Shown: in pieces, positions 5,085 to 35,654 of the stretch
Numbering within the stretch: position 1 is the first letter of the stretch
How the letters are laid out: each line of letters starts with the position of its first letter
Assembly: GCA_026418995.1 (NCBI GenBank)
Contig: JAOAAG010000168.1
Location: 1 to 40,113 of the forward strand
Length of the DNA: 40,113 bases
Direction of reading: 5' to 3'
Origin: Anaerolineae bacterium
GTDB taxonomy: Bacteria > Chloroflexota > Anaerolineae > B4-G1
Program-made: the position numbers and the translations under genes
Notes under the pieces: model-generated
What the model saw: only the letters and a program-made list of their open reading frames with translations
Database searches by the model: none
Told to the model about the DNA's origin: nothing

Positions 5085-6338
5085 ATGATTACTTGTGAGG
5101 AGTTTGAGCGACAGCTTCAAGAGGCGCTGAACCATCTGTACGACCCTGATTATCAGCCCTCCGACGCCCTGTGCGCAGCGCTGGGTTGCAGTATCCAGGA
5201 TGGAGCGCTCGCTGTGCAGGCCATCATTCTCCGCGCGATCAAAGACTTGGAGCCACCCTCTGACACTCCCCTCACAGCTCATACCCGGCAGGCCTATGAT
5301 TTGCTGCATAACCGGTTCGTGCTCAGGCTCACCCAGGAGGAAACAGCCGATCGTATGCACATCAGCCGCACCAGCGTACACCGCGCGCAACGCACGGCCG
5401 TGCATGTCCTGGCGAGGAAGCTGTGGGAGAAATGCCTGGCACAACAGATGGGAGAAAGCGAGGAAACAGCCGAGGACCTGAACGCTCAGGCCTCAGACTG
5501 GCATACGCAGATGGAGCGCGAGCTGGCAGCGCTACAGGCAAGCGCTCCCCATGCTGTCTCCTACGTGGAGGAGACGATTAACAGTGTGCTGAAGCTCAGG
5601 GAGGCGCTGGCTTCTCCACCCGAAGCCCACGTAGAGGTCGAATCCGTACAGCCTGGGCTGGTGGCAGCAATTCATCCTTCGGTGCTCCGTCAAATCCTGA
5701 TCGCGGCCATCAGGCGCATGGCCCACTATACCTCTACCGGCCCTATCGCGATCTTTGCCCGGCTTGAGGATGGGAACGTGAAGATCACTCTAACGAGCAC
5801 CGTCGCCACAGGAGACAAGCGGCCTACCGAGAGCGATCTTGTCCGTGACCTGCTGGTACCGCCGGGTGTACAGGTCGAGGCCCATGTTAACGGTGACCGC
5901 GCTTTCCTGTGGGTAGGGTTGCCTTCTACAGGTAAGGTCACGGTGCTGGTTGTGGACGACAATCCCGATATGGCACGCTTCTACCGGCGTTCCGCGGAAA
6001 AGACCAGCTATCACATCGTCCACACCGGCGAAGGGCAAAACCTGTTCGAGACCATCGCGGCCACTGCACCCGATATTATCGTGCTGGACGTGATGCTCCC
6101 GGATATTGATGGCTGGGAACTATTAACGCGCCTCCACCAGGACCCCGCGACGCGCTCCATACCCGTCGTGGTCTGTACTGTCGTTAGAGAAGAAGAGCTG
6201 GCATTATCCCTCGGCGCTGCCTGCTACCTGCCCAAACCTGTGCGGAGCCGCGAGTTCATCGAGGCGTTAGATCGAGTCCTCGCTCAGGCGCCAGCAAGAG
6301 CGTCGAGACTTCCAGCGAACAACGCAGCAACTTGCTGA
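5085..6338 (+). CDS. Response-regulator-like protein: N-terminal sigma-70 region-4-like HTH, central degenerate HATPase-like region, C-terminal receiver domain.
   Basis: HTH: LTQEETADRMHISRTSVHRAQRTAVHVLARKL. Middle: LRQILIAAIRRMAHYT..GPIAIFARLEDGNVKITL. Receiver: VLVVDDNPDMARFY...DIIVLDVMLPDIDGWELL...PVVVCT...YLPKPV. Start is taken at ATG 5085 (MITCEEFERQL), because the upstream TTG-initiated extension looks non-coding. Confidence 0.8.
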   Translation: MITCEEFERQLQEALNHLYDPDYQPSDALCAALGCSIQDGALAVQAIILRAIKDLEPPSDTPLTAHTRQAYDLLHNRFVLRLTQEETADRMHISRTSVHRAQRTAVHVLARKLWEKCLAQQMGESEETAEDLNAQASDWHTQMERELAALQASAPHAVSYVEETINSVLKLREALASPPEAHVEVESVQPGLVAAIHPSVLRQILIAAIRRMAHYTSTGPIAIFARLEDGNVKITLTSTVATGDKRPTESDLVRDLLVPPGVQVEAHVNGDRAFLWVGLPSTGKVTVLVVDDNPDMARFYRRSAEKTSYHIVHTGEGQNLFETIAATAPDIIVLDVMLPDIDGWELLTRLHQDPATRSIPVVVCTVVREEELALSLGAACYLPKPVRSREFIEALDRVLAQAPARASRLPANNAATC

Positions 6339-8466
6339 GCGATAGTCCCCCGTCTATCGTCACCAGCAGGTAGTCGCTTGCCGGTGGCTGCTCCGCCGGG
6401 TCCTGGGCCGACACAAAGAAGGTGAGGACATCCTTCAATCTCCCCTCTTGCCGCATCGTCTCCAGCACCTGCCAGCCGTTCATACCGGGCATCACGATGT
6501 CGAGCAGTAGCAAATCAGGTGGGGCGCTGCGCAGTTCAGCCAACGCCTCCTTACCGCTCGCAGCCGTCACAACCTCGAGAGTACTGTCGCACGTACGCAA
6601 CATTCGGCTGAGAAGCTCCAGGAACTCCAGGTCGTCATCCACCACCAGGACGCGCTTCACGGGCTTGCCGACCGCTTTCAGCACACGTTCCAGGTCAGCG
6701 CGAGTGATGGGCTTGATGAGATACCCCGCTGCTCCGGCATGGATGGCTCGCTCCGTCAAGCGCGGCACGGAACAGCCGATGACCGGTGTCCCTGGCGCTC
6801 GCTTCCGAACCATCTCCACCAGTGCCCAGGGGTCATCGGCGTCCACCACGTTAAGCATCACAGCGCTTGCCGGGCATTCCCGCAGACTGCGTTCGGCCTG
6901 GCTCGGGTCCTCGACGTTCACAAACTCCACTCTGTCCAGATAGCGCGTGAACCTGGGATAGAGCATGCCGGTCTCGTCACAAACGATGATGCGAGGTCTG
7001 ACGAGTTGCTCTGCGGAGCTGGGTTGCCCGGCCCGAAATGCTTGTTCCCGCCAGATCCATTCCTCTCTCAGTTGATGGCCTGGCCTTACGATATGTTCCA
7101 CGGGTAGGGAGATGGGCAGGGTAAAGTAGAAGGAACTTCCCACCCCCGGCTTACTCTCAAACCACATGCGTCCACCGTGGAGTTCAACAAACCGCTTGCT
7201 GATGCTTAACCCCAGGCCACTCCCTCCTTTGTCACGCCAGAGTTGCCGCGTACCCTGCCAGAAAGGCTCGAAGACACGCACGGCATCCTCCGGGGCAATA
7301 CCCGGCCCGGTGTCCGTCACACTGACCATCACCTGCTGATCCTGGCAGGCGAGCGCAATGGTGATCCCGCCCACTTCGGTGAAGCGGGCCGCATTGCTCA
7401 GCAGATTAAGAATGACCTGGCGGATGCGCGTGCGATCGCAGTAGACCTGTGGCAGGTCATCGGGAATCACCACCTGCAGGGCCAGGTGTTTCTTTTCCAG
7501 CAGCGGACGCACGGCTTCCACGCTACTCTCGACGATCTGTCTCAGATCAACCTGTTCTCTGTGAAGCGACAGCCGCCCTGCCTCCGTCTGAGTGAGATCC
7601 AGCACATCGTTAATCATATTGGAAAGGTGCTCACAGTTACGGCGGACTACCTCGAGGTCCTCGCGCATCTTGGGGGACAACACCATGTCGTAGATCTCCG
7701 GGCTTTCAAACATCAGATCAACCAGCCCGATGATCATGTTCAGAGGCGTGCGGAACTCGTGGCTTACGCTGGCCACGAAGGCTGTCTTTGCTCTCTGTGC
7801 CTCCTCGGCGATAGCCCGTAGTGAGGCCATTCTCTCGTTGGCAAGCGCCAGTTGCCGATTCGCATTGGCGAGGTTGTCCAGCGTTTGCTTCAGATCGCCT
7901 TTGAGGCCGCGGGCTTCCTCAAGCCGGCGCTGAGCAAGCTCAAAATACTCCCTTAGCCATGTGCTGTATTGATAGATCGGATAGCGCGTGGTATACATAG
8001 CACTCAACACGCCCCAGATAGCCACCAAGGCCACAGCAGCCTCAGAAGTATCCAGTTCTCCGCCCGACAGGCTTGTCAGAAGCACGATGGACACAGTCTC
8101 CCCTGCAGCGACCATAGTTGCCGCTGCCAGTCCAACAAGGGGAACGGCCATTGCAGTAGGAATGACCGCCCAGGCCAGATGACCAGGCACTTCCAACCAT
8201 GACCCAGCAAGGTGAACCGCTGCTACCAGCGCCAGGACGGCAAACCAGCGGCCTGCCACGGCGTTCCAGTCCACCAGGAGCAGGCCGGAGAGTGCCAGGC
8301 CTGAGAACAGCAGGGAAAGCGAGATCACCCTTTCCACTACCTCCCATGGGTAGGAAAGGGCCTCCACCACCAGAAAGAGCAGACATCCCACGGCCAGCAG
8401 CACAACGAACACTGGCTTAGGGGAGATCTGTAGCTCAGGTTCAGAAGCAAACAGTGACTTGTTCAT
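6256..8466 (-). CDS. Hybrid sensor histidine kinase: multi-TM N-terminus, HisKA, HATPase_c, a pseudo-receiver and a receiver.
   Basis: H-box is FVASVSHEFRTPLN. N, G1 and G2 boxes are LLSNAARFT, DTGPGI and GGSGLGLSI. C-terminal receiver is VLVVDDDLEFLELL...LLLLDIVMPGMNGWQVL, preceded by a receiver-like segment lacking the acidic pocket (RIIVCDETG...YLIKPI). Confidence 0.9.
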   Translation of the reverse strand: MNKSLFASEPELQISPKPVFVVLLAVGCLLFLVVEALSYPWEVVERVISLSLLFSGLALSGLLLVDWNAVAGRWFAVLALVAAVHLAGSWLEVPGHLAWAVIPTAMAVPLVGLAAATMVAAGETVSIVLLTSLSGGELDTSEAAVALVAIWGVLSAMYTTRYPIYQYSTWLREYFELAQRRLEEARGLKGDLKQTLDNLANANRQLALANERMASLRAIAEEAQRAKTAFVASVSHEFRTPLNMIIGLVDLMFESPEIYDMVLSPKMREDLEVVRRNCEHLSNMINDVLDLTQTEAGRLSLHREQVDLRQIVESSVEAVRPLLEKKHLALQVVIPDDLPQVYCDRTRIRQVILNLLSNAARFTEVGGITIALACQDQQVMVSVTDTGPGIAPEDAVRVFEPFWQGTRQLWRDKGGSGLGLSISKRFVELHGGRMWFESKPGVGSSFYFTLPISLPVEHIVRPGHQLREEWIWREQAFRAGQPSSAEQLVRPRIIVCDETGMLYPRFTRYLDRVEFVNVEDPSQAERSLRECPASAVMLNVVDADDPWALVEMVRKRAPGTPVIGCSVPRLTERAIHAGAAGYLIKPITRADLERVLKAVGKPVKRVLVVDDDLEFLELLSRMLRTCDSTLEVVTAASGKEALAELRSAPPDLLLLDIVMPGMNGWQVLETMRQEGRLKDVLTFFVSAQDPAEQPPASDYLLVTIDGGLSLSKLLRCSLEVSTLLLAPERGLDLTPR

Positions 8467-8861
8467 TTTACCCCACTGTCACAAGGTTTGAGTCTGACTG
8501 AATGGATAGGAGTAGCAAGCCGATCCAGGTAACCTTGAGTGAGGGCCTGTGTAACGATTGTGAGAGGTGTGCCCCCCGCCTGCTGGATAATCCGCCGCCG
8601 GGAATCGGGACACCCCATCTGGGTTGCTTGTGTCTGAAGTAATCCACTGTCCGTGTTACCCCACCGTTCCATCTGCCCGCTCGCTATTAGACGATGGTGC
8701 AGTGGTGGAATGACAATGTGTGCACTGCAGCGGGCTCCCCTCATCACACCCGCCATTAGCCCGCGAGCCTGGGCCCGCGCGGGTGGCAAGATGATGGCAC
8801 GTTGCGCGAATGGCCGGGTGCGATGGCCTGTTAAGTCGGCCTCATTGGCCTCTCCAAGCAC
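8463..8861 (-). CDS. Hypothetical protein (132 aa), possibly a degenerate domain remnant.
   Basis: GTG-initiated ORF fills the gap between the ABC exporter and the kinase. Its TGA overlaps the kinase ATG (ATGA). I recognise no family. Its composition is Arg/Ala/Gly-rich, as for many spurious high-GC ORFs. Confidence 0.3.
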   Translation of the reverse strand: MLGEANEADLTGHRTRPFAQRAIILPPARAQARGLMAGVMRGARCSAHIVIPPLHHRLIASGQMERWGNTDSGLLQTQATQMGCPDSRRRIIQQAGGTPLTIVTQALTQGYLDRLATPIHSVRLKPCDSGVK

Positions 8862-8885
8862 TGCGACGGAAATGGGGGGCTGAAA

Positions 8886-11150
8886 TCAGGTTGGCGCTGT
8901 GACGACTTTCAACTGCGAGAGCGCGATCTCCCGATAAATCTCACACGTCGCCATCAGTTCCTCATGAGTGCCCTGGCCGACGATATGGCCCTCGTCCAGC
9001 ACCAGGATCCGGTCAGCATATTTGATGGTCGCCACCCGCTGGGAAACGATAATGACGGTGCTCCCACCAACGTAATCCCGCAGTGCCTGTCGCAGCCGCA
9101 CATCGGTCCGATAGTCCAGCGAGGAGAAGCAGTCATCGAAGATGTAGAGCGCTGGACGTTTGACCAGGGCGCGAGCAACCGTAAGTCGCTGTTTTTGCCC
9201 GCCTGAGAAATTGGCTCCATGCTGGGCCACCTCCGCCTCCAGCGGTGAGCGACCGTCGTCGCCGGTGCGGGAAAGCATGATGTCGTGGGCCTGAGCGACT
9301 TCCAGCGCCTTCAGCAGCCGCTCTTCGGGCGCGTCCTCATCGGCGAAGCGCAGGTTGCTGGCAATCGTGCCGCTGAAGAGATTACTCTGCTGCGGGACGT
9401 AGCCGATGCGATCCCGCAGGTCCTTCAGCCGCACCCGGCGAATGTCCACCCCTCCGATGCGAATTTCCCCCTCCGTTACGTCATAGAAACGCGGAATCAG
9501 GTTGATAAGGGTGGATTTGCCGGAACCGGTGGTGCCGATGATGCCCACCGTCTCCCCGGCCCGGATGGTAAAGGTGATGTCGCTAAGGACGTTCTCCTCT
9601 GCGCCCGGATAGCGGAAGGAGACATGGCGGAACTCGATCGTGGGGTGGAAGGGCTCCGGGAAGGCGGCGGGCTCTTCAGGATCACTGATGCTCACCCTGG
9701 TTTCCAGAACGTCTGCGATGCGGTTGGCTGCGACATTCACCCGGGGTAGCATGGTGGCGAGCATAGAGAGCATCATAAAGGAGAAGAAAACCTGCATTGC
9801 ATACTGGAGGAAGGCCATCATATCGCCAACGCGCATGGTCGCCTGGGCTACCTGGTGGGCACCGATCCAGATGATAAGCACGTTGAGCCCGTTCATCAGC
9901 AGCATGGTCGCGGGCATCATCACCACGGCGACGCGGCTGACAAACAGGAAGGTTCGGGTGAGCTCCTGATTGGCCTGATCAAAGCGCTGTTTCTCGCGCT
10001 CCTGGCGGTTAAAGGCCCGCACGACCATCATACCGGTGAGGTTCTCCCGCGCAACCTGATTGAGACGGTCAACCAGGGACTGGATAAGCTTGAATCTGGG
10101 GAGTGTGATGACGAAGGTGCCCATAGTCAGGCCGACCAGAGCCAGAACGCCCAACGCGATGCTCCATAGCATAGAGGGACTCTTTGCAGCAGCGCGGAGC
10201 ATAGCCCCAATGCCCATCAGCGGTGCAAAGAAAACCATACGCAGGATGAACATCATCACCATCTGAATCTGGGTGATGTCATTAGTGGAGCGGGTGATGA
10301 GCGAGGCGGTGGAGAAGCGATCCAGTTCGGCCCCGGAAAAAGCCATGACCTTCTCAAAGAAACGGTGTCGCAGATCGCGGGCCAGCCCGGCCGCAATGCG
10401 CGCGGCCAGGAGGCCAACCGTTAAAGAAGCGATCACAGCAACCAGGGCGACAAGGAGCATCAGTCCACCGACACGCAGGATATAGGCGTTCTGGATTTTG
10501 AGCATATCCATGCCGAGGGCCTCGTACTCAGCGCGGATGGCACGGGCCGCGGCCTGGAACAGGGCCTTCTCCCCACCTAGTGCCTCGAACCGCCGCTCCA
10601 CAGCCTCGACCATATGGGCTCGCTGCCCGGCGGGCATACGGGCTAACAGACTGAACAGGTCTGTCCCTGGGGGGAGTTTGGAGAGGTCAAAACCGCTTAT
10701 CCCTGGCATCAGCGCTCCGGCCTGCTCTGGATGGGCCTGAACCCGTTCTATGCCGGAGACAATGATGAGTGCGCGGGCTAATGGGATCTGGTGTTGCCCT
10801 ATGGATACCCCGTCGGTAGGGCGGAGAACATAGACGGGTTCCTGAGCCAGCGCCGGATACCGCTCTACCAGCGGCTCATAGTCCGGTGATGAGGCATTCA
10901 CCAGAGCGTACTGGGCCATCATCCAGCTCTGTTCCTCCTGGGTCAGGAACAGGCGCAGACGGTCCAGTGTAGTCTGGCGCATGGCCTGGGGCAACACCTC
11001 TTCTACGCCTCCCTGCTGGATACCCACGTTGACGATGCGGGACATATAGTCGGGCAGGGAGAGGTCGGCGTTAGCCTGAATGAAGAGCAGCACCATGATA
11101 GCCAGGATCAGCGGGGTGAACGGTTGGATGTAGGGAAAGAGCCGTCTCAT
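8886..11150 (-). CDS. ABC exporter, fused permease and ATPase (type IV multidrug/lipid exporter-like half transporter) with a large insertion after TM1.
   Basis: Walker A GTTGSGKST, signature FSGGQKQRLTVARAL and Walker B LYIFDDCFSSLD are present, with 6 TM segments. About 190 residues lie between TM1 and TM2. Confidence 0.9.
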   Translation of the reverse strand: MRRLFPYIQPFTPLILAIMVLLFIQANADLSLPDYMSRIVNVGIQQGGVEEVLPQAMRQTTLDRLRLFLTQEEQSWMMAQYALVNASSPDYEPLVERYPALAQEPVYVLRPTDGVSIGQHQIPLARALIIVSGIERVQAHPEQAGALMPGISGFDLSKLPPGTDLFSLLARMPAGQRAHMVEAVERRFEALGGEKALFQAAARAIRAEYEALGMDMLKIQNAYILRVGGLMLLVALVAVIASLTVGLLAARIAAGLARDLRHRFFEKVMAFSGAELDRFSTASLITRSTNDITQIQMVMMFILRMVFFAPLMGIGAMLRAAAKSPSMLWSIALGVLALVGLTMGTFVITLPRFKLIQSLVDRLNQVARENLTGMMVVRAFNRQEREKQRFDQANQELTRTFLFVSRVAVVMMPATMLLMNGLNVLIIWIGAHQVAQATMRVGDMMAFLQYAMQVFFSFMMLSMLATMLPRVNVAANRIADVLETRVSISDPEEPAAFPEPFHPTIEFRHVSFRYPGAEENVLSDITFTIRAGETVGIIGTTGSGKSTLINLIPRFYDVTEGEIRIGGVDIRRVRLKDLRDRIGYVPQQSNLFSGTIASNLRFADEDAPEERLLKALEVAQAHDIMLSRTGDDGRSPLEAEVAQHGANFSGGQKQRLTVARALVKRPALYIFDDCFSSLDYRTDVRLRQALRDYVGGSTVIIVSQRVATIKYADRILVLDEGHIVGQGTHEELMATCEIYREIALSQLKVVTAPT

Positions 11151-11168
11151 AGGAGTCTCCTGTGGGGG

Positions 11169-11633
11169 CTATACCCATTCCTTAACGGCCGGTTGCGCCT
11201 CCCCGGATTCCAGTGCTTCGATGATGCGGTCTACAGCGGCGTGCAGGTGGGTACGTTCCTCAGCGGAGAGTGTGCTCAGCACCTGCTCCAGTTTTCGGTG
11301 ACGTTCGGCTTTGATCTGGTGCAGGAGTTGCACCCCGGTCTCCGTCAGCGAGACCACGACGGAGCGGCGATCGTGGAGATCACGGCGGCGCTCCACCAGC
11401 CCGCGTTCTACTAAGCGATCCACGATCCCCGTCATCGAAGGCAGGCTCTGCAGAGTGGCTGCGGCCAGGGGCCCCATACGGCATGGCCCTTCTGCCTTCT
11501 CCAGGGAAAGGAGGGCCATAAATTGGGGGAAGGTCAAGCCGTGGCGGGCCAGGTCGCGTGCGAAGTGTTGCCGCAACGCCCTCATCAGGCGGAAAAAACG
11601 CATGGCCAGTGCTTCCAGTTCATCGTCGGCCAT
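11169..11633 (-). CDS. MarR family transcriptional regulator.
   Basis: Winged-HTH region: LTFPQFMALLSLEKAEGPCRMGPLAAATLQSLPSMTGIVDRLVERGLVERRRDLHDRRSVVVSLTETG. ATG 11633 (MADDELE) has GGGAG upstream. An alternative GTG start is at 11666. It sits 18 nt upstream of the ABC exporter. Confidence 0.85.
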   Translation of the reverse strand: MADDELEALAMRFFRLMRALRQHFARDLARHGLTFPQFMALLSLEKAEGPCRMGPLAAATLQSLPSMTGIVDRLVERGLVERRRDLHDRRSVVVSLTETGVQLLHQIKAERHRKLEQVLSTLSAEERTHLHAAVDRIIEALESGEAQPAVKEWV

Positions 11634-11724
11634 CTCATCTCCCTGGTCACAGGTATGGCGACTCACACAGCTTCAGAGGCGGTCCCGTCAGGAAATTTTC
11701 TGGTCAAAATATTTAACGTTGCAA

Positions 11725-11752
11725 AGTATACCACATGGCAGGGGAGTGTCAA
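11725..11752 (-). promoter_or_regulatory. Putative sigma-70 promoter for the marR/ABC-exporter operon (TTGACA, 16 nt spacer, TGgTATACT extended -10).
   Basis: On the minus strand: TTGACA (plus coordinates 11747..11752) and TATACT (11725..11730), preceded by TGG. Confidence 0.4.
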
Positions 11753-11815
11753 TCGGGCCCTGAGCGCCCTGGAGCTGCGCGGCATGTCACCGGGTATGGG
11801 CCAACTGGCACCTGT

Positions 11816-13123
11816 CTACCCCACCAGCGCAAGCAGCAAATCGTTCACATTGGTGCCGGTGGGGCCAGTACGGATGAGGGCGCCGAGCTGGTCAAAGAAG
11901 CTGTAGCTGTCGTTGGCCTCCAACGCTGCCAGGGGATCCAGCCCCAGCGCCCGGGCGCGGGAGACGGTCTCGCCGGTGACGAGGGCACCGGCGGCATCGG
12001 TGGGGCCGTCACTGCCGTCGGTGGCCAGAGCCACCAGCAGGACGCCTGGCCATCCCTCAAGCGCGAGTGCCGCTGCTAGAGCGAGCTCTGTGTTACGTCC
12101 CCCCTTGCCTGGCCCGCGGACCGTCACTGTCGTTTCCCCGCCCCACACCAGACAGGCCGGCGGTGACAGGGGGTCGCCGCAGGCGCGCACGCCCTTCACC
12201 AGCGCCGCCGCGACCTTGGCTACCTCGCGAGCCTCTCCCTCTACGAAGGTGCTCAACAACAGGGCGTTGAATCCCAGCCGGGCAGCCTGATCTACTGCTG
12301 CAAGCGCCGCCATCCGGTTGGAGCCGACGATGACATACTGAGCGCGGGCAAAAACTGAATCGCCTGGCTTGGGTGTCTCCAGGAGAAATGGGCCATAGCG
12401 GTAACTACTCTCACGGCCCAGTCGCCTTGCAAGCACAGCCTGTGCATCGCTCACCGTAGTGGGGTCCGGCACGGTGGGGCCGGAGCCGATGACCTCTGGG
12501 GGGTCGCCTACTACGTCTGAGAGAGCAAGGGTCACGAGCGCAGCCGGAGTGATCAGACGGGCCAGATTGCCTCCCGCGAGCACTGAGCAGTGCTTGCGGA
12601 CGGTATTAAGCTCGTTGATCGTGGCTCCAGCACGCAGCAGAACTCCGGTAAGCGACTGGAGCTCGGCCAGGGAAAGGCCGGGCGCCGGCAGGGTAAGCAG
12701 TGCTGAGGCACCGCCGGAGAGGAGACACAGCACCAGGTCGCGCTCCGTAGCCCGACGCGCCATCTCTGCAACGGCCTGTGCCCCGCGTATTGAGTTCTCG
12801 TCGGGTATGGGATGGCCTGCTTCAAGGATGGTGAGGTGAGGCGGGTGGACAGTCGCATGGCCGTATTTGGTCACCAGTACGCCAGCAGTCAGGTAATCGC
12901 CCAGAATGTCGGCAACAGCCTGGCCCATCGCGGCGGCTGCCTTGCCACCCCCGAGGACGTAGACGTGGGCGTACTGATCCAGGTTATAGGTGTGTCCGGC
13001 CACGGTCAGCAGATTACCAGCACGGACAACATGGCACCGCACTGCCGCTGCGGGCTCGACCGCTGCCAGCGCAGACTGGATCAATTGGGTAGCCATACGC
13101 GCAAGGGCATCTTCTGAGAGCAT
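11816..13123 (-). CDS. Glycerate 2-kinase / hydroxypyruvate-reductase-like protein (DUF4147 plus MOFRL family).
   Basis: 435 aa with typical family segments: GGGKAAAAMG, LLSGGASALL, CLVWGGETTVTVRGPGKGGRNTELALAAAL, ATDGSDGPTDAAGA, TGPTGTNVNDL. Confidence 0.85.
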   Translation of the reverse strand: MLSEDALARMATQLIQSALAAVEPAAAVRCHVVRAGNLLTVAGHTYNLDQYAHVYVLGGGKAAAAMGQAVADILGDYLTAGVLVTKYGHATVHPPHLTILEAGHPIPDENSIRGAQAVAEMARRATERDLVLCLLSGGASALLTLPAPGLSLAELQSLTGVLLRAGATINELNTVRKHCSVLAGGNLARLITPAALVTLALSDVVGDPPEVIGSGPTVPDPTTVSDAQAVLARRLGRESSYRYGPFLLETPKPGDSVFARAQYVIVGSNRMAALAAVDQAARLGFNALLLSTFVEGEAREVAKVAAALVKGVRACGDPLSPPACLVWGGETTVTVRGPGKGGRNTELALAAALALEGWPGVLLVALATDGSDGPTDAAGALVTGETVSRARALGLDPLAALEANDSYSFFDQLGALIRTGPTGTNVNDLLLALVG

Positions 13124-29436: not shown

Positions 29437-29796
29437 ATGTCCACAGGAAAAATCATAGGCTACATAATCGCGGCGATTCTTATCTTTTTCGGTGTCCTCT
29501 TTATCTGGGCGGCCTTCAGCCCGGAAGGGAAGGTGGGCTGGATATGCGTCGGGGTAATCAGTGTGGGCATTGGACTGGGCATCATCGCGCTGGTCAAGTT
29601 CCGCGAGCCGAAACCAGCCCAGCAGATTGTGCAGAAAATTGACCTCAGCGGCGATATCCAGTTGGAGACGCTGAAGTGTCAGAAGTGTGGCGGCGAACTC
29701 CAGAAGGATAGCATTACCATCAAAGAAGGGGCTGTCTTTATCTCTTGTCCCTACTGTGGCTCCTATTACCAGATGGTCGAGGAGCCGAAGTGGTAG
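29437..29796 (+). CDS. Small membrane protein with two TM helices and a C-terminal zinc ribbon (CxxC-N21-CxxC).
   Basis: TM1 is IIGYIIAAILIFFGVLFIWAAF and TM2 is WICVGVISVGIGLGIIALV. These are followed by KCQKCGGELQKDSITIKEGAVFISCPYCGSYY. The gene is visibly more AT-rich than its neighbours. Confidence 0.75.
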   Translation: MSTGKIIGYIIAAILIFFGVLFIWAAFSPEGKVGWICVGVISVGIGLGIIALVKFREPKPAQQIVQKIDLSGDIQLETLKCQKCGGELQKDSITIKEGAVFISCPYCGSYYQMVEEPKW

Positions 29797-29819
29797 CGGG
29801 CGGCTTACGGAGGCATGAG

Positions 29820-31496
29820 ATGCGCATCAAAACATGGCTGATCTGGCCACTACTTGCCCTCGCCCTGTTGGGCTTGCCGCTCTCTCTGTACGCTCAGGAC
29901 TATTCTTTCTCGCTCGACCGGGAAACAGTAGAGGTGTGGGTCCACCAGGACGGCTCCATCAGGCTGGAGTACTGGTTCACCTTTACCTGTGATCCGGGCG
30001 CGCATAGCATAGATGTGGTGGACCTGGGCCTGCCCAACGGAAATTACAACCTCTCAGACATCTATGCAGACGTGGATGGTAAGCCCATCAGCCGGGTGGA
30101 CTCCGACTATCAGGGTAAAGGAGAGTACGGAGTGGCCTTATGGCTGGGCGCTAACGAAATCCGCCCCGGCAGGTCGGGTACGGTGCATGTGGTCGTGGAA
30201 CGGGTGGGCGGGATGGTCTATGAGGACAGCCGTGATCCGGAGTATGCCAGCATCGAGTTCTCGCCTACCTGGTTTGGAAGCGAGTATGTCCACGGCACCA
30301 CCGACATGACAGTACGTTTCCACCTGCCAGCCGGTGTGCAGCCGGAGGAGCCCCGCTGGCACTCCGCGCCCTCTGGTTGGCCCGAACAGCCACAAACAGC
30401 CCTGGATGATACAGGGAGAGTGTTGTACACCTGGCATAACCCCTCCGCCAGAGCAGACCGGCAATACACCTTTGGCGCGTCGTTTCCTCGCCGTTACCTG
30501 GCCGCCGGCGCGGTGCAGACGCCGCCATCACTGCTGGAGCGGGCTGTTACTACACTTATAGGAATAATCTGCAACCCTGTCTGCTGCTTTTTTGCTGCGG
30601 TAGTGGGCATCATAGCACTATCCGCATGGGCGGGCCAGCGGCGTAAGATGCAGTACCTGCCCCCTTCGGTGAAAGTCGAGGGCGTGGGGGTCAAGAGAGG
30701 ACTTACGGCGGTGGAGGCAGCCATCCTGCTGGAAACGCCTCTCAACAAAGTGCTGACGATGATCCTCTTCGGCCTCCTGAAGAAGGGAGCGGTGGCCGTG
30801 CTCGACGACGCCCCGCTTCGGATCAGGGTGAATACGCCCATTCCCGAGGGGCTGCGGGAGTACGAAAAGGACTTCCTCGGGGCGGTGCAACCGGACGGCA
30901 CCCTCGATGAAAGCAGGCTGCGCGATATGATGACCGCCCTTATCAAATCGGTGAGCAGCAAAATCAAGGGGTTCAGCCGCCAGGAGACGGTGGCTTACTA
31001 CAGGGACATCGTCCGGCGGGCGTGGGAGCAGGTTGAGGGAGCCGAGGTACCGGAGGTGCGTGGCCGTCTCTTTGATGAGGGGCTGGAGTGGACGATGCTG
31101 GATGACCAGTTTGAAGAGCGCACTAACCGGGTATTCAGCACGGGGCCGGTCTATGTGCCGTTGTGGTGGGGTTATTACCGCCCCTGGGCAGGCGCCACTG
31201 CGACCGCGGGCGGTGGCACTGCTGTTGGTGACAGTCCCACCTTCGGCGTAACTGCCGCGCGTCCCTCGCTGCCGACGCTGCCGGGGGCTACCTTCGCCGC
31301 GACTATTGTGAAGGGGATCGAGTCCACCTCCAGCCGTATCGTCCGCAGCCTGACCGGTTTCACCGGCGCAGTCACCGCAGTGACCAATCCCCCGCCTCCG
31401 CCATCTTCCGGTGGAAGGCGCTACGGAGGCGGCGGCTGTGCCTGTGCCTGCGCCTGTGCCGGGTGCGCCTGCGCCTGCGCTGGGGGAGGAAGGTGA
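29820..31496 (+). CDS. Single-pass membrane protein, DUF2207/TIGR04222-like, with a signal peptide and a C-terminal Gly/(Cys-Ala)n tail.
   Basis: ATG 29820 has GGAGG upstream. Signal peptide is MRIKTWLIWPLLALALLGLPLSLYAQ. The ectodomain is about 240 aa (YSFSLDRETVEVWVHQDGSIRLEYWFTF...). The TM is LIGIICNPVCCFFAAVVGIIALSAWAG, followed by QRRK. The cytoplasmic segment GLTAVEAAILLETPLNKVLTMILFGLLKKGAVAVLDD recalls DUF2207/TIGR04222 proteins. The protein ends RRYGGGGCACACACAGCACACAGGGR. Confidence 0.85.
   Translation: MRIKTWLIWPLLALALLGLPLSLYAQDYSFSLDRETVEVWVHQDGSIRLEYWFTFTCDPGAHSIDVVDLGLPNGNYNLSDIYADVDGKPISRVDSDYQGKGEYGVALWLGANEIRPGRSGTVHVVVERVGGMVYEDSRDPEYASIEFSPTWFGSEYVHGTTDMTVRFHLPAGVQPEEPRWHSAPSGWPEQPQTALDDTGRVLYTWHNPSARADRQYTFGASFPRRYLAAGAVQTPPSLLERAVTTLIGIICNPVCCFFAAVVGIIALSAWAGQRRKMQYLPPSVKVEGVGVKRGLTAVEAAILLETPLNKVLTMILFGLLKKGAVAVLDDAPLRIRVNTPIPEGLREYEKDFLGAVQPDGTLDESRLRDMMTALIKSVSSKIKGFSRQETVAYYRDIVRRAWEQVEGAEVPEVRGRLFDEGLEWTMLDDQFEERTNRVFSTGPVYVPLWWGYYRPWAGATATAGGGTAVGDSPTFGVTAARPSLPTLPGATFAATIVKGIESTSSRIVRSLTGFTGAVTAVTNPPPPPSSGGRRYGGGGCACACACAGCACACAGGGR
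31437..31481 (+). repeat. In-frame TGYGCC hexanucleotide tandem repeat encoding CACACACA-G-CACACA.
   Basis: The sequence reads tgtgcc tgtgcc tgcgcc tgtgcc ggg tgcgcc tgcgcc tgcgct. Confidence 0.9.
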
Positions 31497-31500
31497 GCGG

Positions 31501-31572
31501 ATGTCGGTAGCAGCTATGGGGGGCCGCGCTTTAAAACGGGCTTCCGTTGCGGCGCGTGTTGATGCATGGTGA
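31501..31572 (+). CDS. Candidate micro-ORF (23 aa, MSVAAMGGRALKRASVAARVDAW) bridging the Cys-Ala-tail gene and the radical SAM gene.
   Basis: ATG 31501 lies 5 nt after AGGTGA (31490..31495) and 4 nt after the upstream stop. Its TGA (31570..31572) overlaps the radical SAM start (ATGGTGA). The radical SAM ATG has no Shine-Dalgarno sequence of its own. Confidence 0.25.
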   Translation: MSVAAMGGRALKRASVAARVDAW

Positions 31573-32897
31573 AACAGACCTGTTCCCAGCTTCTCTCTCC
31601 CGGTCTCCACGCCTATGAGCGGCGCGATGGGCAAGGGGGGCGTGTTCGCCTCCATCTGCGTATAGAGCCGGACGGGCGGGGTCTGCTCGTGATCAACGCC
31701 GCTCAGGTGCTCCATCTGAACCAGACCGCGGCCGTCTACACTCGCCTGGCGCTGGAAGGGTACTCCGAGGACGCAGCAGTGCGGGAGATCAGGCGCTTCT
31801 ACCGGATAGATGCCCAAACGGCCCGCGCCGATTACCGTCGCATCCGCGAGCAGATCGAAGCATGCCTCGGCCACGAGGACGGCGTCTGCCCTTTCCAGGA
31901 ATTGGAGCGGATCGAACCGTTTGCGGTGCAGCTCTCTGCCCCTTACCGGATGGACCTGGCACTGACCTACCGCTGCGACAACCATTGTCCCCACTGCTAC
32001 GTTGCCCGGCCGGGTAATTACCCGGAGATGGACACGGGTACCTGGAAGGCGGTCCTGGAACGGGTATGGGCAGCAGGTATCCCCCACGTCTGTTTCACCG
32101 GTGGCGAGGCCACGCTGCGCGATGACCTGCCAGCGCTGGTCGCGTATGCTGAAGGGCTGGGCCTGGTGACCGGGCTGTTAACCAACGGCCGCCGCCTGGC
32201 CGACATGGGCTATGTACAGGAGCTGGCCAGGGCGGGGCTGGACCACGTACAGATCACCCTGGAATCGCACGATGAGCGCGTGCACGACACGATGGTGGCG
32301 GCAGCCGGCGCCTGGCGGGAGACAGTAGAGGGCATCCGCAACGCACTCGCAGCCGGTCTTTACACCACCACCAACACTACACTGACCCGGATAAACGTGG
32401 ACACCATCGCCGGGACGGTGGCCTTCGTTGCCTCGCTGGGGGTGCCCACCTTTGCCTGCAACAGCCTGATCTATGCCGGCAGAGGGGCTGCTGTCGGCAC
32501 CGGCTTCCAGGAGGGAGAGCTGGTCCCCATTCTGGAGCAGGTGCGGGAGGCCTGCGACCGCTACTCCCTGCGCCTGATATGGTACACCCCGACCCAGTAC
32601 TGCGCGCTTTCGCCGCTGCAACTGGAGCTGGGTGTGAAGGCCTGTACCGCCGCGCTCTACAATATGTGCATTGAGCCTGACGGGGCGGTTATCCCCTGCC
32701 AGAGCTACTATGAGCCGCTAGGTCACATCCTGCACGACCCCTGGGAGAAGATATGGAACCACGAGCTGGCCCGTGCGCTGCGCGAGCGGCGCTACGTGCC
32801 GGATAAGTGCCGTACATGCGCGGAGCTGCCTCTGTGTGGGGGCGGATGTCCGCTCTATCTGACACATCTCGCAATAGCGGAAATCAAAGGAGCATAG
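31566..32897 (+). CDS. Radical SAM/SPASM-domain protein with an N-terminal PqqD-like RiPP recognition element (peptide/protein maturase).
   Basis: CDNHCPHC (CxxxCxxC) at 31974..31997, and FTGGEATL. SPASM cysteines are CTAALYNMCIEPDGAVIPC and CRTCAELPLCGGGC (C-x2-C-x5-C-x3-C, 32808..32849). The N-terminal segment is GLLVINAAQVLHLNQTAAVYTRLALEGYSEDAAVREIRRFYRIDAQTARADYRRIREQI. An in-frame TGA sits immediately upstream of ATG 31566. Confidence 0.92.
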   Translation: MVKQTCSQLLSPGLHAYERRDGQGGRVRLHLRIEPDGRGLLVINAAQVLHLNQTAAVYTRLALEGYSEDAAVREIRRFYRIDAQTARADYRRIREQIEACLGHEDGVCPFQELERIEPFAVQLSAPYRMDLALTYRCDNHCPHCYVARPGNYPEMDTGTWKAVLERVWAAGIPHVCFTGGEATLRDDLPALVAYAEGLGLVTGLLTNGRRLADMGYVQELARAGLDHVQITLESHDERVHDTMVAAAGAWRETVEGIRNALAAGLYTTTNTTLTRINVDTIAGTVAFVASLGVPTFACNSLIYAGRGAAVGTGFQEGELVPILEQVREACDRYSLRLIWYTPTQYCALSPLQLELGVKACTAALYNMCIEPDGAVIPCQSYYEPLGHILHDPWEKIWNHELARALRERRYVPDKCRTCAELPLCGGGCPLYLTHLAIAEIKGA

Positions 32898-33689: not shown

Positions 33690-34937
33690 CTAATGCTTAA
33701 AGCTGCGCTGGCCGGTAAAGACCATCGTCGCGCCCGCTTCGTTACAGGCCTGGATCACCTGGTAGTCATTGAGTGAGCCTCCAGGCTGGATGACGGCCGT
33801 GACCCCCTCGCGCAGCCCGACGTCCACCCCGTCCCGGAAGGGGAAGAACCCGTCCGAGACCATCACCGCGCCGATCAGCCCGCCGTGTTGGGCCTCGACC
33901 TCTTCACGTATCTCCCGCCGCCGCCCCTCGTCCTCTAACGCCGAGTAGATGACCCCGTACCGCTCGTAGGCCAGACGGTCGGCCATCTTGCGGTAGGCCT
34001 TATCCCTGGCGATCTCGGCCACCCCGACGCGGTCCTGCTCGCCAGTGCCGATGCCGACCGTGACCAGGTCCTTGACATAGATGACCGAGTTGGAAGTCAC
34101 CCCGGCCTCGACCATCCAGCCAAACAGCATGTCCTCGTATTCCCTGTCGGTCGGCTCGCGTGCGATCCGGTACACGACGCCGTTGTGGACGGCCTCGGCT
34201 AGCATCAGATCGGCCTTGGTGCGCGTCTGTGGCACGTAGGACAGTTGGGCGATAATCGAGCCGTCAATGAGGCTTTTGAAGTCCACGAAGCGTTCCGTGG
34301 CGAACTCGGCGAGGCGTTTGATGTTGTCAATGCGCATGATACGCAGGTTCTTGCGTCTACCAAGGATACTGAGCGTGCCCTCCTCAAACTCGGGCGCCAC
34401 CACGACCTCAGCGTAACGTTCTGAGATGGCCTCCGCCGTGGGAACATCCACCGGCCGGTTGAGGGCGATACAGCCGCCGAAGGCCGCCACATGGTCGGCC
34501 AGGTCGGCTTTGAGATACGCCTCCAGGATGGTATCGGCAACGGCTACACCGGAGGGGTTGTTGTGCTTCATGATCGCCGCCGCCGGCCGCTCGGTCAGAT
34601 AGCGCAGAATGTTGAGCGCATTGTCCGCGTCGGTCAGGTTGATCTTGCCGGGGTGCTTGCCGAACTGGAGCAGCTCCGCATCGGAGACCAGGTAACGCCC
34701 CGGCGCGATGGTCTTGACCTCGCCTAAGACCAGGTTGCCGTTAATCAGGCGATACAGCGCAGCCTCTTGGCCGGGATTTTCGCCGTAGCGCAGCCCCTTG
34801 CGCACACCGTCAATGACCCAGGAGACTTTCTCGTAGACAAGCGTGGTACGCCCCTCGTCGGAGATGAAGGATATTTCCATCCGTTCCGGGAAGTGGTCGT
34901 CCATAATGGTGTGATAGGCTCGTTTGAGGTCCGACAT
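33690..34937 (-). CDS. purH: AICAR formyltransferase (C-terminal PurH domain) encoded as a separate polypeptide.
   Basis: LRYGENPGQEAALY, MKHNNPSGVAV and VIQPGGSLNDYQVIQACNEAGATMVFTGQRSFKH are AICARFT hallmarks. ATG 34937 is preceded by TAAGGAG. Confidence 0.88.
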   Translation of the reverse strand: MSDLKRAYHTIMDDHFPERMEISFISDEGRTTLVYEKVSWVIDGVRKGLRYGENPGQEAALYRLINGNLVLGEVKTIAPGRYLVSDAELLQFGKHPGKINLTDADNALNILRYLTERPAAAIMKHNNPSGVAVADTILEAYLKADLADHVAAFGGCIALNRPVDVPTAEAISERYAEVVVAPEFEEGTLSILGRRKNLRIMRIDNIKRLAEFATERFVDFKSLIDGSIIAQLSYVPQTRTKADLMLAEAVHNGVVYRIAREPTDREYEDMLFGWMVEAGVTSNSVIYVKDLVTVGIGTGEQDRVGVAEIARDKAYRKMADRLAYERYGVIYSALEDEGRRREIREEVEAQHGGLIGAVMVSDGFFPFRDGVDVGLREGVTAVIQPGGSLNDYQVIQACNEAGATMVFTGQRSFKH

Positions 34938-34949
34938 AGCCCTGACTCC

Positions 34950-35654
34950 TTATCCTTGGGATACATTACCGGCATCCATGAAGGTGTAGATACTCGCCAG
35001 CTCGGCCCGATGGCGGGTGGCCAGGAACGAACTGATCGCCGCATCGTATCGGGCGGTGAGCGCGAAAGCTTTGCATGCCAGCTCAAAACGCTTTTCCAGG
35101 CTGAGCTTCCCCTCGTGAGCGCGGGGGAAGGCCAGCAGCTCAGGATAATCGGCCGGGTCCACGACCGGGGCCACGCGCAGGTAGTTCTTCGCTGCGGCGC
35201 GGATCATACTCGGCCCCCCGATGTCTATATTCGCCCGCGCCTCCTCGACCGTTGTCCCGGCACGGGCCACGGTGGCCTCGAACGGGTAGAGATTGCACAC
35301 CACCATGTCAAATGGCACGGCCCCGGTGCGGGCTAGATCCGCCCGGTGGGCCTCGTTGTAGGTTTCGCTCAGCAGGCCAAGGTAAATCTTGAAATCCAGC
35401 GTCTTGACCAGTCCCCCCTGCATTTCCGGCTGTCCGGTATACTCCGAGACCTGAGTCAAATAGCGGGGGGTCTTTTCCGGTCCCAGGATGGCGGTAATGG
35501 CGTTGTAACTGCCGCCCGTAGAGTAAAAATGTACCTCAGGGTTGATCTCAATAAGTCCCGCGATCAGCCCCTCCAGCCCGGCCTTATCCGATACGCTGAC
35601 CAGGACCCTTTGCACCTTCACCCAATTATCTATCTGGCGCACGATATTGACCAC
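34950..35654 (-). CDS. purH: IMP cyclohydrolase (N-terminal MGS-like PurH domain) encoded as a separate polypeptide.
   Basis: RVLVSVSDKAGLEGL, STGGS, PEMQGGLVKTLDFKIYLGLL, FDMVVCNLYPFE, IDIGGPSMIRAAAKN. GTG start has GAAGGAGGG upstream. Confidence 0.88.
   Translation of the reverse strand: MVNIVRQIDNWVKVQRVLVSVSDKAGLEGLIAGLIEINPEVHFYSTGGSYNAITAILGPEKTPRYLTQVSEYTGQPEMQGGLVKTLDFKIYLGLLSETYNEAHRADLARTGAVPFDMVVCNLYPFEATVARAGTTVEEARANIDIGGPSMIRAAAKNYLRVAPVVDPADYPELLAFPRAHEGKLSLEKRFELACKAFALTARYDAAISSFLATRHRAELASIYTFMDAGNVSQG

Follow-up and report, generated by a model that had tools for sequence, protein, structure and literature searches.

Introduction

Radical S-adenosylmethionine (SAM) enzymes carrying a SPASM domain are maturases rich in new peptide chemistry, and the substrates studied so far are nearly all short and exported. 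On cysteine-rich cores these enzymes most often form thioethers, as in the sactipeptides and ranthipeptides; in the ACGX system the substrate is a free peptide and not the tail of a protein. A different enzyme class, the multinuclear non-haem iron oxidative enzymes (MNIOs), is associated with the bufferins. For the DUF2207 proteins, which may end in glycine-rich tails, we know of no description of a radical SAM linkage or of a (CA)n motif. The cysteine-containing Gly/Ser tails of TIGR04222 proteins have been described as putative MNIO substrates (Leprevost et al., 2025; PMC12452194), SbtM as a radical SAM/SPASM enzyme making thio(seleno)oxazole from Gly-Cys or X-Cys (PMC9204691), and the one functional paper on DUF2207 that was found concerns stress tolerance in Streptococcus mutans (PMC10457818). 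The present work deals with a membrane protein gene on contig JAOAAG010000168.1 of an Anaerolineae bacterium, of which the whole 40,113-nt stretch was analysed (the window). Its product, the tail protein, ends in alternating cysteines and alanines, and a radical SAM/SPASM gene follows directly.

The unusual ...CACACACAGCACACAGGGR end of this protein hardly varies across lineages that range from Chloroflexi to Asgard archaea, and its gene is almost always accompanied by that of a dedicated radical SAM enzyme. Such a pattern speaks for an undescribed system of protein modification rather than for an unstable DNA repeat. The layout is like that of a ribosomally synthesised and post-translationally modified peptide (RiPP) placed inside a protein: a conserved motif is followed by a variable Gly/Ser linker and an invariant C-terminal Cys core.

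Results

Sequence of the cysteine-alanine tail

The terminal peptide GGGGCACACACAGCACACAGGGR-COOH is the translation of window positions 31425..31493 (plus strand) and is followed by a TGA stop codon (31494..31496). Its layout is GGGG-CACACACA-G-CACACA-GGGR*, with NPPPPPSSGGRRY directly N-terminal to it. Its 15 core residues comprise seven Cys, as many Ala and a single central Gly; the Cys/Ala alternation is strict inside each of the two blocks. The first-pass annotation, made from the letters of the window, had described seven cysteines alternating with alanine over 15 residues, flanked by glycines and preceded by a linker. This description was confirmed, the single Gly lying between the blocks. 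The TGYGCC units that it had listed, four and three around a GGG, were likewise borne out: the codons of 31425..31493 read GGA GGC GGC GGC, then TGT GCC TGT GCC TGC GCC TGT GCC for the first block, GGG for the central Gly, TGC GCC TGC GCC TGC GCT for the second block and GGG GGA GGA AGG before the stop. According to Tandem Repeats Finder, positions 31432..31480 form an array of period 6 (7.7 copies, 76% matches, score 43), which is an imperfect repeat. No further (C-x)4 run is present in the six frames of the 40-kb window.

Conservation of the tail

A homologue search with the tail protein returned 2681 matches. The terminus (CA)3-5-G-CACACA-GGGR was found in 119 of the 120 best homologues (57-84% identity), the one exception being annotated as partial. 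In an alignment of 26 sequences all columns from the first shared Cys through the terminal Arg are invariant, and nowhere else is the protein as well conserved as in the tail. An index-free HMMER search across 1.84 billion cluster representatives gave 409 clusters at E<=1e-30, a number that rose to 1097 at E<=1e-3. The tail was seen in 124 of the 148 best new representatives from this all-protein search; the remaining 24 were mostly shorter than typical members or ended within conserved regions. Most of these tail-less representatives look like truncations, and one seems to be read in another frame across the tail region. The tail is retained even in archaeal members with an overall identity of only 27-34%. 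Homologues devoid of a Cys-containing tail had been named in the earlier annotation as what would refute it; the opposite was found, with the tail on essentially every full-length homologue. An assembly artefact, also considered there, is ruled out by the occurrence of the same tail in hundreds of independent assemblies.

The variation that does occur is confined to a few forms. Val may replace Ala, Ser may replace the central Gly, and three-block forms exist (CVCACVSCACVCACVSCACACASGGAG); archaeal tails are unsplit, (CA)5-6GGGR. Between lineages, the first block holds two to six CA units and the second none, three or four, and the second block with the GGGR end is practically invariant across hundreds of clusters.

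At the nucleotide level the picture is different. The 81 copies of CACACAGGGR were encoded by 79 distinct DNA versions, with 60% of third positions differing on average between any two copies, and the synonymous sites of the tail are saturated between lineages. Since the codons vary freely while the peptide is fixed, the tail is maintained by selection at the peptide level, and this purifying selection is strong. The number of CA units was constant in nine of ten clusters of proteins at least 90% identical to each other, 5+3 and 4+3 forms being both present in the tenth, and the Gly/Ser linker upstream of the tail varies even inside such clusters. In-frame gain or loss of whole CA units happens occasionally, on evolutionary time scales, as lineages differ by whole units and one cluster mixes two forms. 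No sign of a hypervariable contingency locus was seen in the cluster or codon comparisons. The proposal of the first-pass annotation to compare homologue C-termini had a divided outcome: the Cys tail is kept, in favour of a substrate, and the copy number is nearly fixed within clusters, against slippage. The claim that slippage of the hexanucleotide tunes the number of Cys-Ala pairs did not survive the imperfect repeat, the 79 DNA versions and the nine fixed clusters.

Gene neighbourhood of the tail

Genomes, one per species, were scanned with the peptide patterns CACACACA and GCACACAG, a seed that favours tail-bearing members and no particular neighbour. As the scan is seeded with the tail it cannot gauge the share of tail-less members, for which the protein searches above were used instead. 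It yielded 74 loci, mostly from Chloroflexota. The other bacterial loci belong to Acidobacteriota, Aminicenantes, Hydrogenedentes, Planctomycetota, delta-/Myxococcota and Sabulitectum, and the archaeal loci to Methanomassiliicoccales, Thermoplasmatota, Nanoarchaeia, Hodarchaeota and Heimdallarchaeota. Neighbours were defined by tblastn and by all-against-all clustering of nearby open reading frames (ORFs), and four partners were found to recur: the radical SAM/SPASM enzyme (enzyme A), a paralogue of it (paralogue B), a class I SAM methyltransferase and a zinc-ribbon membrane protein.

Enzyme A, the orthologue of the window's radical SAM/SPASM enzyme (42-77% identity), adjoins the tail gene in about 60 of the 74 loci. 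The CxxxCxxC motif is present in 62 of 66 enzyme-A ORFs, and the other four include Cys-poor paralogues from the window's closest relatives. Almost all A-type orthologues have 8-11 Cys within their last 130 residues (nine in the window enzyme). In the window, the enzyme gene (31566..32897) starts 69 nt downstream of the tail gene on the same strand, the spacer between the stop and the start codon being 31497..31565; from strand and spacing only, the two genes are assumed to be co-transcribed.

The link also holds from the enzyme side. Three enzyme-A homologues on long contigs were chosen among the matches to the enzyme itself, irrespective of the tail protein. All three contigs encode, directly upstream of the enzyme, the small membrane protein and the tail protein, which here has 552-568 residues and ends in (CA)4-5G(CA)3GGGR. 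By manual comparison, the longest contig of at least 29 enzyme homologues, out of the top 120, is equal in size to that of a top tail-protein homologue. The first-pass annotation had singled out a (CA)n tail beside a radical SAM/SPASM gene as distinctive, and the association is indeed conserved across phyla.

Paralogue B is about 33-46% identical to enzyme A (e.g. L027 11138..12298 and L003 3555..4796, where L numbers denote loci of the scan). It lacks the CxxxCxxC motif and keeps the PqqD-like N-terminus, which scores 29.1 bits where the cut-off applied to the window enzyme is 23.4. Its Cys content is one to three in total, with five C-terminal Cys in loci of the Planctomycetota type. By these features paralogue B is a cluster-less pseudo-radical SAM protein. 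It was found with none of the eight unsplit archaeal (CA)5-6 tails, and split tails usually have it; this co-variation is explained by none of the readings considered here. The methyltransferase (Methyltransf_11/25, UbiE-like) is present in 47 loci, archaeal ones included (e.g. L027 12285..13055); the thiol, the C-terminus and the Arg are candidate targets.

In most of the 74 loci tblastn located a homologue of the zinc-ribbon protein, whose gene either immediately precedes the tail gene or opens the cassette; it is constant in bacterial and archaeal cassettes. Hydropathy places its transmembrane (TM) segments at residues 1-32 and 31-57. No curated family was matched by this protein, the only matches being weak ones to zinc ribbons. 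The usual gene order is zinc-ribbon protein, tail protein, A, B, methyltransferase; in the Planctomycetota/delta group it is zinc-ribbon protein, A, B, tail protein, and in the window's closest relatives (L003) B and the methyltransferase lie upstream. The window cassette consists of the zinc-ribbon protein, the tail protein and enzyme A only. Neither a protease nor a transporter is conserved among the neighbours, as judged from the clustering and from the Pfam lists.

Two loci show additional features. In L050 (Chloroflexia) tandem tail genes (6025..7806 and 7878..9806), each ending in CACACAGCACACACAGGGR, lie downstream of one enzyme A/paralogue B pair. In L001, the contig of entry P0120, a SynChlorMet-like set (ScmC by Pfam, two radical SAM genes, two PqqD genes and a HEPN/nucleotidyltransferase pair; 8892..13011) is found 1-5 kb downstream of the tail gene on the opposite strand, and a divergent gene for a 334-residue radical SAM protein lies upstream of the tail gene.

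The radical SAM/SPASM enzyme

The window enzyme matches Radical_SAM (PF04055) with 86.6 bits (cut-off 29.5) and SPASM (PF13186; residues 360-418) with 41.5 bits (cut-off 21.5). In the AlphaFold2 (AF2) model its N-terminus is predicted to form four strands followed by three helices (residues 13-102) at a predicted local distance difference test score (pLDDT) of about 70-90, resembling a RiPP recognition element (RRE), and PF05402 (PqqD) is precomputed for many of the enzyme's orthologues. The scores against NCBIfam equivalogs were all far under the respective cut-offs: PqqE 120.7 vs 381, SkfB (TIGR04403) 86.9 vs 300, StsB (NF045574) 70.6 vs 625, SbtM (TIGR04082) 60.9 vs 350 and ACGX (TIGR04340) 53.8 vs 400. 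The enzyme therefore belongs to an unassigned radical SAM/SPASM family. Among solved structures, SkfB and PqqE are the nearest in sequence (E ~1e-20), and Foldseek with the enzyme model returned SkfB, BlsE, SuiB, PqqE, GDGT-MAS and CteB besides generic radical SAM folds. Reading the chemistry off enzyme homology was attempted and dropped, because the equivalog scores do not discriminate and the Foldseek hits are generic radical SAM folds.

The tail protein

The ORF of the tail protein was listed from a TTG at 29745 (29745..31496). Aligned with its homologues, the protein more probably starts at the ATG at 29820, which gives a product of the same length as database entry P0001. No Pfam or NCBIfam family was matched at E<=0.01, and at E<=10 there were stray or sub-threshold matches only; the family seems to be unannotated and only remotely like TIGR04222 and DUF2207. 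Hydropathy indicates a signal peptide and one TM segment with its peak at residues 242-275. The AF2 model, calculated from the 26-sequence alignment (mean pLDDT 66.6), contains a beta-sandwich at residues ~30-230 with pLDDT above 90, TM helices at 239-251 and 254-279, a helical, winged-helix-like domain at 298-408 and disorder from 401 to the end. The sequence QRRKMQY after the TM segment suggests, by the positive-inside rule, a cytoplasmic location for the last ~280 residues, the tail included.

Residues 401-559 lie below pLDDT 50, and the model supports neither a hairpin nor a helix in the tail. A tail that is disordered as in this model would be accessible. A two-residue beta-turn at C-A-G-C pairing both Cys blocks is speculation, and the archaeal (CA)5-6 tails, in which the central Gly is missing, count against it. 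In the motif preceding the linker (Table 1), residues F515, T516, V519, T520, T523, N524, P525 and P527 are invariant among the 26 sequences. The motif is recognisable in members from Acidobacteriota, Methanomassiliicoccales, Hodarchaeota and Heimdallarchaeota and is weaker in the Planctomycetota/delta group.

When the model was compared with the Protein Data Bank (PDB) using Foldseek, ribophorin I/Ost1 ranked at the top, followed by the N-terminal domain of M1 aminopeptidases (E ~1e-9 to 1e-7). Whole-chain TM-scores were low because the good match is limited to the N-terminal domain. This ectodomain (29820..30530) thus has as its best PDB fold match an oligosaccharyltransferase subunit; the plan of ribophorin I also comprises an ectodomain, a single TM helix and a cytosolic part. 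In P0004, P0005, P0006, P0065, P0121, P0122 and P0127 (765-774 residues) the ectodomain is tandemly duplicated, adding ~200 residues, and the tail is the same.

Table 1. Features of the tail-protein cassette in the window, with coordinates in window positions.
Feature	Position	Strand	Remark
Small membrane protein, 119 aa, two N-terminal TM segments and C-terminal CxxC...CxxC zinc ribbon	29437..29796	+	First cassette gene
Tail protein, 558 aa	29820..31496	+	Predicted signal peptide, beta-sandwich ectodomain, TM helix, cytoplasmic domain, disordered C-terminus; (CA)n tail
Single TM helix, then QRRKMQYLPP	30531..30653	+	Predicted from hydropathy and AF2
Predicted cytoplasmic domain with highly conserved GVGIKRGLTAVEAAILLETPLNKVLTMILFGLLKKGA segment	30708..31040	+	Many invariant columns; remotely TIGR04222-like
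Pre-tail motif F-T-x-x-V-T-x-V-T-N-P-x-P	31359..31397	+	Candidate RRE docking segment
Linker PPSSGGRRYGGGG, Pro/Ser/Gly-rich, flexible	31398..31436	+	Length and sequence variable
Tail (CA)4-G-(CA)3-GGGR-COOH	31437..31493	+	Candidate modification site
Radical SAM/SPASM enzyme, 443 aa	31566..32897	+	Proposed tail maturase
PqqD-like N-terminal RRE	31566..31871	+	Putative; sub-threshold PF05402 match and AF2
CxxxCxxC motif (CDNHCPHC)	31974..31997	+	Radical SAM cluster
SPASM domain, ~8 Cys	32601..32849	+	Enough for two auxiliary [4Fe-4S] clusters

Outside the cassette, two adjacent minus-strand ORFs of 415 (33690..34937) and 234 residues (34950..35654) resemble the two halves of PurH. The smaller one carries a IDIGGPSMIRAAAKNY motif that we take to be that of the IMP cyclohydrolase half, and the larger one a ...TGQRSFKH end that is presumably typical of the AICAR transformylase half. 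By these motifs PurH seems to be encoded as separate genes.

Discussion

The best explanation of these observations is that the tail serves as the 'core peptide' at the C-terminus of a substrate protein that is anchored in the membrane and belongs to an undescribed radical SAM modification cassette. We estimate the probability that the tail is the substrate of the neighbouring radical SAM enzyme at roughly 65%. It would then be a protein-embedded, RiPP-like substrate with cysteines modified by this enzyme. A modification substrate, a metal-binding tail or both had been suggested by the first-pass annotation, and this is still the best reading; both it and the enzyme link are strengthened.

A possible working of the cassette can be outlined. 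After membrane insertion the beta-sandwich would lie outside, followed by one TM helix, and the last ~280 residues, which include the tail, would be cytoplasmic, as sequence and AF2 model suggest. The putative PqqD-like RRE of the enzyme may dock on the FTxxVTxVTNPxP segment, and the Pro/Gly/Ser linker would bring the tail to the active site. There the cysteines would be modified iteratively, one by one, with the Cys thiolate held on an auxiliary SPASM cluster and the 5'-deoxyadenosyl radical abstracting a hydrogen atom. The pseudo-radical SAM protein with its RRE is a probable scaffold or chaperone in most genomes, the methyltransferase may add to the process, and the zinc-ribbon membrane protein would be a further constant partner. 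The product might be a covalently rigidified and/or metal-binding sulfur-rich tail, which would stay on the membrane protein since the cassette is without a protease or exporter.

As to the chemistry, should the tail be the substrate, thioether bridges between Cys-S and the C-alpha of the neighbouring Ala (sactionine type) would suit a core in which every donor Cys alternates strictly with one acceptor Ala; as a rough weight we rate them somewhat short of an even chance. Oxidation at the Cys C-beta to thiooxazole-type heterocycles, as with SbtM, may be assigned a rather lower rough weight; each tail Cys is preceded by a small residue (G, S, A or V). The remainder falls to other chemistry.

Several points weigh against the tail being a substrate of this enzyme. 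Gene adjacency is no proof of an enzyme-substrate relation, and alternating cysteines could bind a metal or Fe-S cluster without any covalent change. About ten of the 74 loci have no A-type enzyme in the available flank (e.g. L001, L040, L063 and L077); there the enzyme would have to be encoded elsewhere, or the tail would have to work unmodified. The window itself contains neither paralogue B nor the methyltransferase within its 40 kb by tblastn, and most loci have both. The PqqD match of the window enzyme (PF05402, residues 46-96) reaches 18.1 bits, below the cut-off of 23.4, and the mean pLDDT of the enzyme model is only 60.8. As no characterised equivalog was matched, the chemistry is unreadable from homology.

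Among the alternatives, an unmodified metal or Fe-S site of the metallothionein kind is the one that survives best, and we consider it improbable. The radical SAM enzyme would in this case act on another substrate or trade clusters or electrons. C-x-C spacing is typical of metallothioneins and CopY-type tails (PMC12648655, PMC7216689), and such clustered C-x-C is what the tail offers, with seven Cys at alternate positions. The predicted cytoplasmic location would keep them reduced, and the loci without an adjacent A-type enzyme fit as well. However, metal binding alone leaves unexplained the near-absolute Ala (or Val) between the cysteines and the invariant GGGR, as well as the dedicated radical SAM/SPASM enzyme, with its putative RRE, that travels with the tail across bacteria and archaea. 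Modification and a metal site are moreover compatible, as modification may create the metal site.

Much further down we place the reading of (CA)n and the terminal Arg as a signal for anchoring or sorting at the C-terminus, or as a site of lipidation, in which the radical SAM enzyme would join Cys to a lipid or other partner. The 15-residue Cys/Ala stretch is strongly hydrophobic, flanked by Gly and followed by a basic end, which loosely resembles tripartite C-terminal sorting signals, and the lipid-coupling radical SAM enzyme GDGT-MAS is among the structural and sequence matches. However, this likeness is confined to the generic radical SAM core (query residues 130-240), a TM helix would need a longer stretch with fewer Gly interruptions, and no sortase-, rhombosortase- or archaeosortase-like gene is present among the conserved neighbours. 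Finally, that the tail is chiefly a DNA-level element, a hexanucleotide microsatellite or contingency locus with high-frequency slippage of CA pairs, can be dismissed almost entirely: the period-6 array, the whole-unit differences between lineages and the one cluster with 5+3 and 4+3 forms would agree with it, but the array has only 76% matches, the codons are free while the peptide is fixed, the copy number is constant in nine of ten near-identical clusters though the adjacent Gly/Ser linker varies, and the second block with GGGR hardly changes at all.

Returning to the tail as a substrate of the radical SAM enzyme, a wider proposal can be made, albeit one that we regard as doubtful. The cassette may be the oxygen-independent radical SAM counterpart of the MNIO/bufferin and MNIO/TIGR04222 systems, with every Cys converted in turn, into consecutive thiooxazoles or into a ladder of Cys-Ala thioethers. 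A tail so modified would act as a metallophore or redox module tethered to the membrane on the cytoplasmic face. The modification, with the pseudo-radical SAM protein as a dedicated partner, would be a new one for proteins and would be shared by anaerobic bacteria and archaea, Asgard archaea included. By their record titles, cassette carriers appear to come largely from anoxic habitats, which an oxygen-independent analogue would suit.

The system offers a sharply defined motif of two residue types on a full-size membrane protein. It comes with a partner set of a dedicated enzyme, a catalytically dead paralogue (as its sequence suggests), a methyltransferase and a zinc-ribbon membrane protein, and it is found in no fewer than six bacterial phyla as well as in several lineages of archaea. 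It is also testable: the core has 19 residues, the candidate chemistries differ in mass shift, and a cultured carrier exists in Ornatilinea apprima P3M-1 (locus L027, with the tail gene at 8004..9722 and enzyme A at 9741..11141). The enzyme link provides a function-linked handle on a family that is without Pfam or NCBIfam annotation and appears remotely tied to the large, obscure DUF2207/TIGR04222 group. If the product binds metal, the Cys-derived metallophores (methanobactins, bufferins) would be extended to anaerobes by way of a different enzyme class.

Comparison with known systems

In the literature searched, from which subscription journals were mostly absent, no published description of the motif was found with CACACAGGGR, ACACAGGGR, CACACACA or CACACACAGCACACA, and terms for Cys-Ala or CXCXCXC returned only papers on DNA primers, silk, zinc fingers or metallothioneins. 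The nearest parallels are the following.

Like the TIGR04222 proteins with their MNIOs, the present family consists of membrane proteins with an unstructured, Gly/Ser-rich, Cys-containing C-terminus tied genetically to a RiPP-type enzyme, and in both cases the presumed substrate is a bona fide protein and not a short peptide. The TIGR04222 profile matches five of the 26 relatives below threshold (best E 1.8e-8); the match of its positions 1-120 to residues 259-385 of P0013 spans the TM helix and the following domain and reaches 30.7 bits, the cut-off being 43. The window protein itself gave no match to TIGR04222 at E<=10, and hence did not reach the cut-off of 43. These scores are consistent with a remote kinship that falls short of membership. 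The partner here is an oxygen-sensitive radical SAM/SPASM enzyme and there an O2-dependent MNIO, and no DUF692 (MbnB_TglH_ChrH) MNIO gene appears in the Pfam lists of the neighbours. The strict, near-invariant (CA)n and GGGR contrast with the scattered cysteines of TIGR04222. Moreover, the zinc-ribbon protein, the pseudo-radical SAM protein and the methyltransferase are undescribed for TIGR04222 loci, and the tail is here predicted to be cytoplasmic, whereas TIGR04222 tails are predicted to be periplasmic (PMC12452194).

The family agrees with DUF2207 (PF09972/PF20990) in its overall architecture, in which a signal peptide or beta-rich N-terminal ectodomain is followed by a TM region and then by a C-terminal tail rich in Gly, and some members are labelled 'DUF2207 domain-containing protein' by the Prokaryotic Genome Annotation Pipeline (PGAP). 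Each half of the DUF2207 models is weakly matched by one of the 26 relatives (E 0.0086 and 0.0044), and the window protein gave no match even at E<=10. The statement in the first-pass annotation that Gly- or Gly/Cys-rich tails occur in DUF2207 and TIGR04222-type proteins is supported by the five sub-threshold TIGR04222 matches, the PGAP names and the published TIGR04222 tails (PMC12452194).

The sactipeptide and ranthipeptide systems (SCIFF, SkfA/SkfB, CteA/CteB, RumC) likewise combine a radical SAM/SPASM (or twitch) maturase and an N-terminal RRE, which is putative in the window enzyme, with a Cys-rich C-terminal core, and SkfB is the closest solved relative of the window enzyme by sequence and fold. 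With its two blocks of Cys separated by one Gly, the tail brings to mind the hairpin topology of sactipeptides. However, the presumed substrate is here the end of a 558-residue membrane protein and not a peptide of 40-60 residues, the cassette is without a protease or exporter, the equivalog cut-offs are failed, and the thioether is a candidate only. With the SbtM system the tail shares Cys in an X-Cys context with a small preceding residue, and the heterocycle made by SbtM retains the thiol; the SbtM substrates, in contrast, are short peptides with one or two Cys/Sec and not a repeat of 5-10 Cys. The ACGX system (TIGR04340, a hypothetical equivalog of uncharacterised chemistry) also joins a radical SAM/SPASM enzyme to short Cys-containing repeats, but the repeat unit is ACGX and not CA. 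In its kind the present system resembles a known one, radical SAM/SPASM maturation with an RRE; it differs in the dipeptide-repeat tail of a membrane protein, in its set of partners and in its span of both bacteria and archaea.

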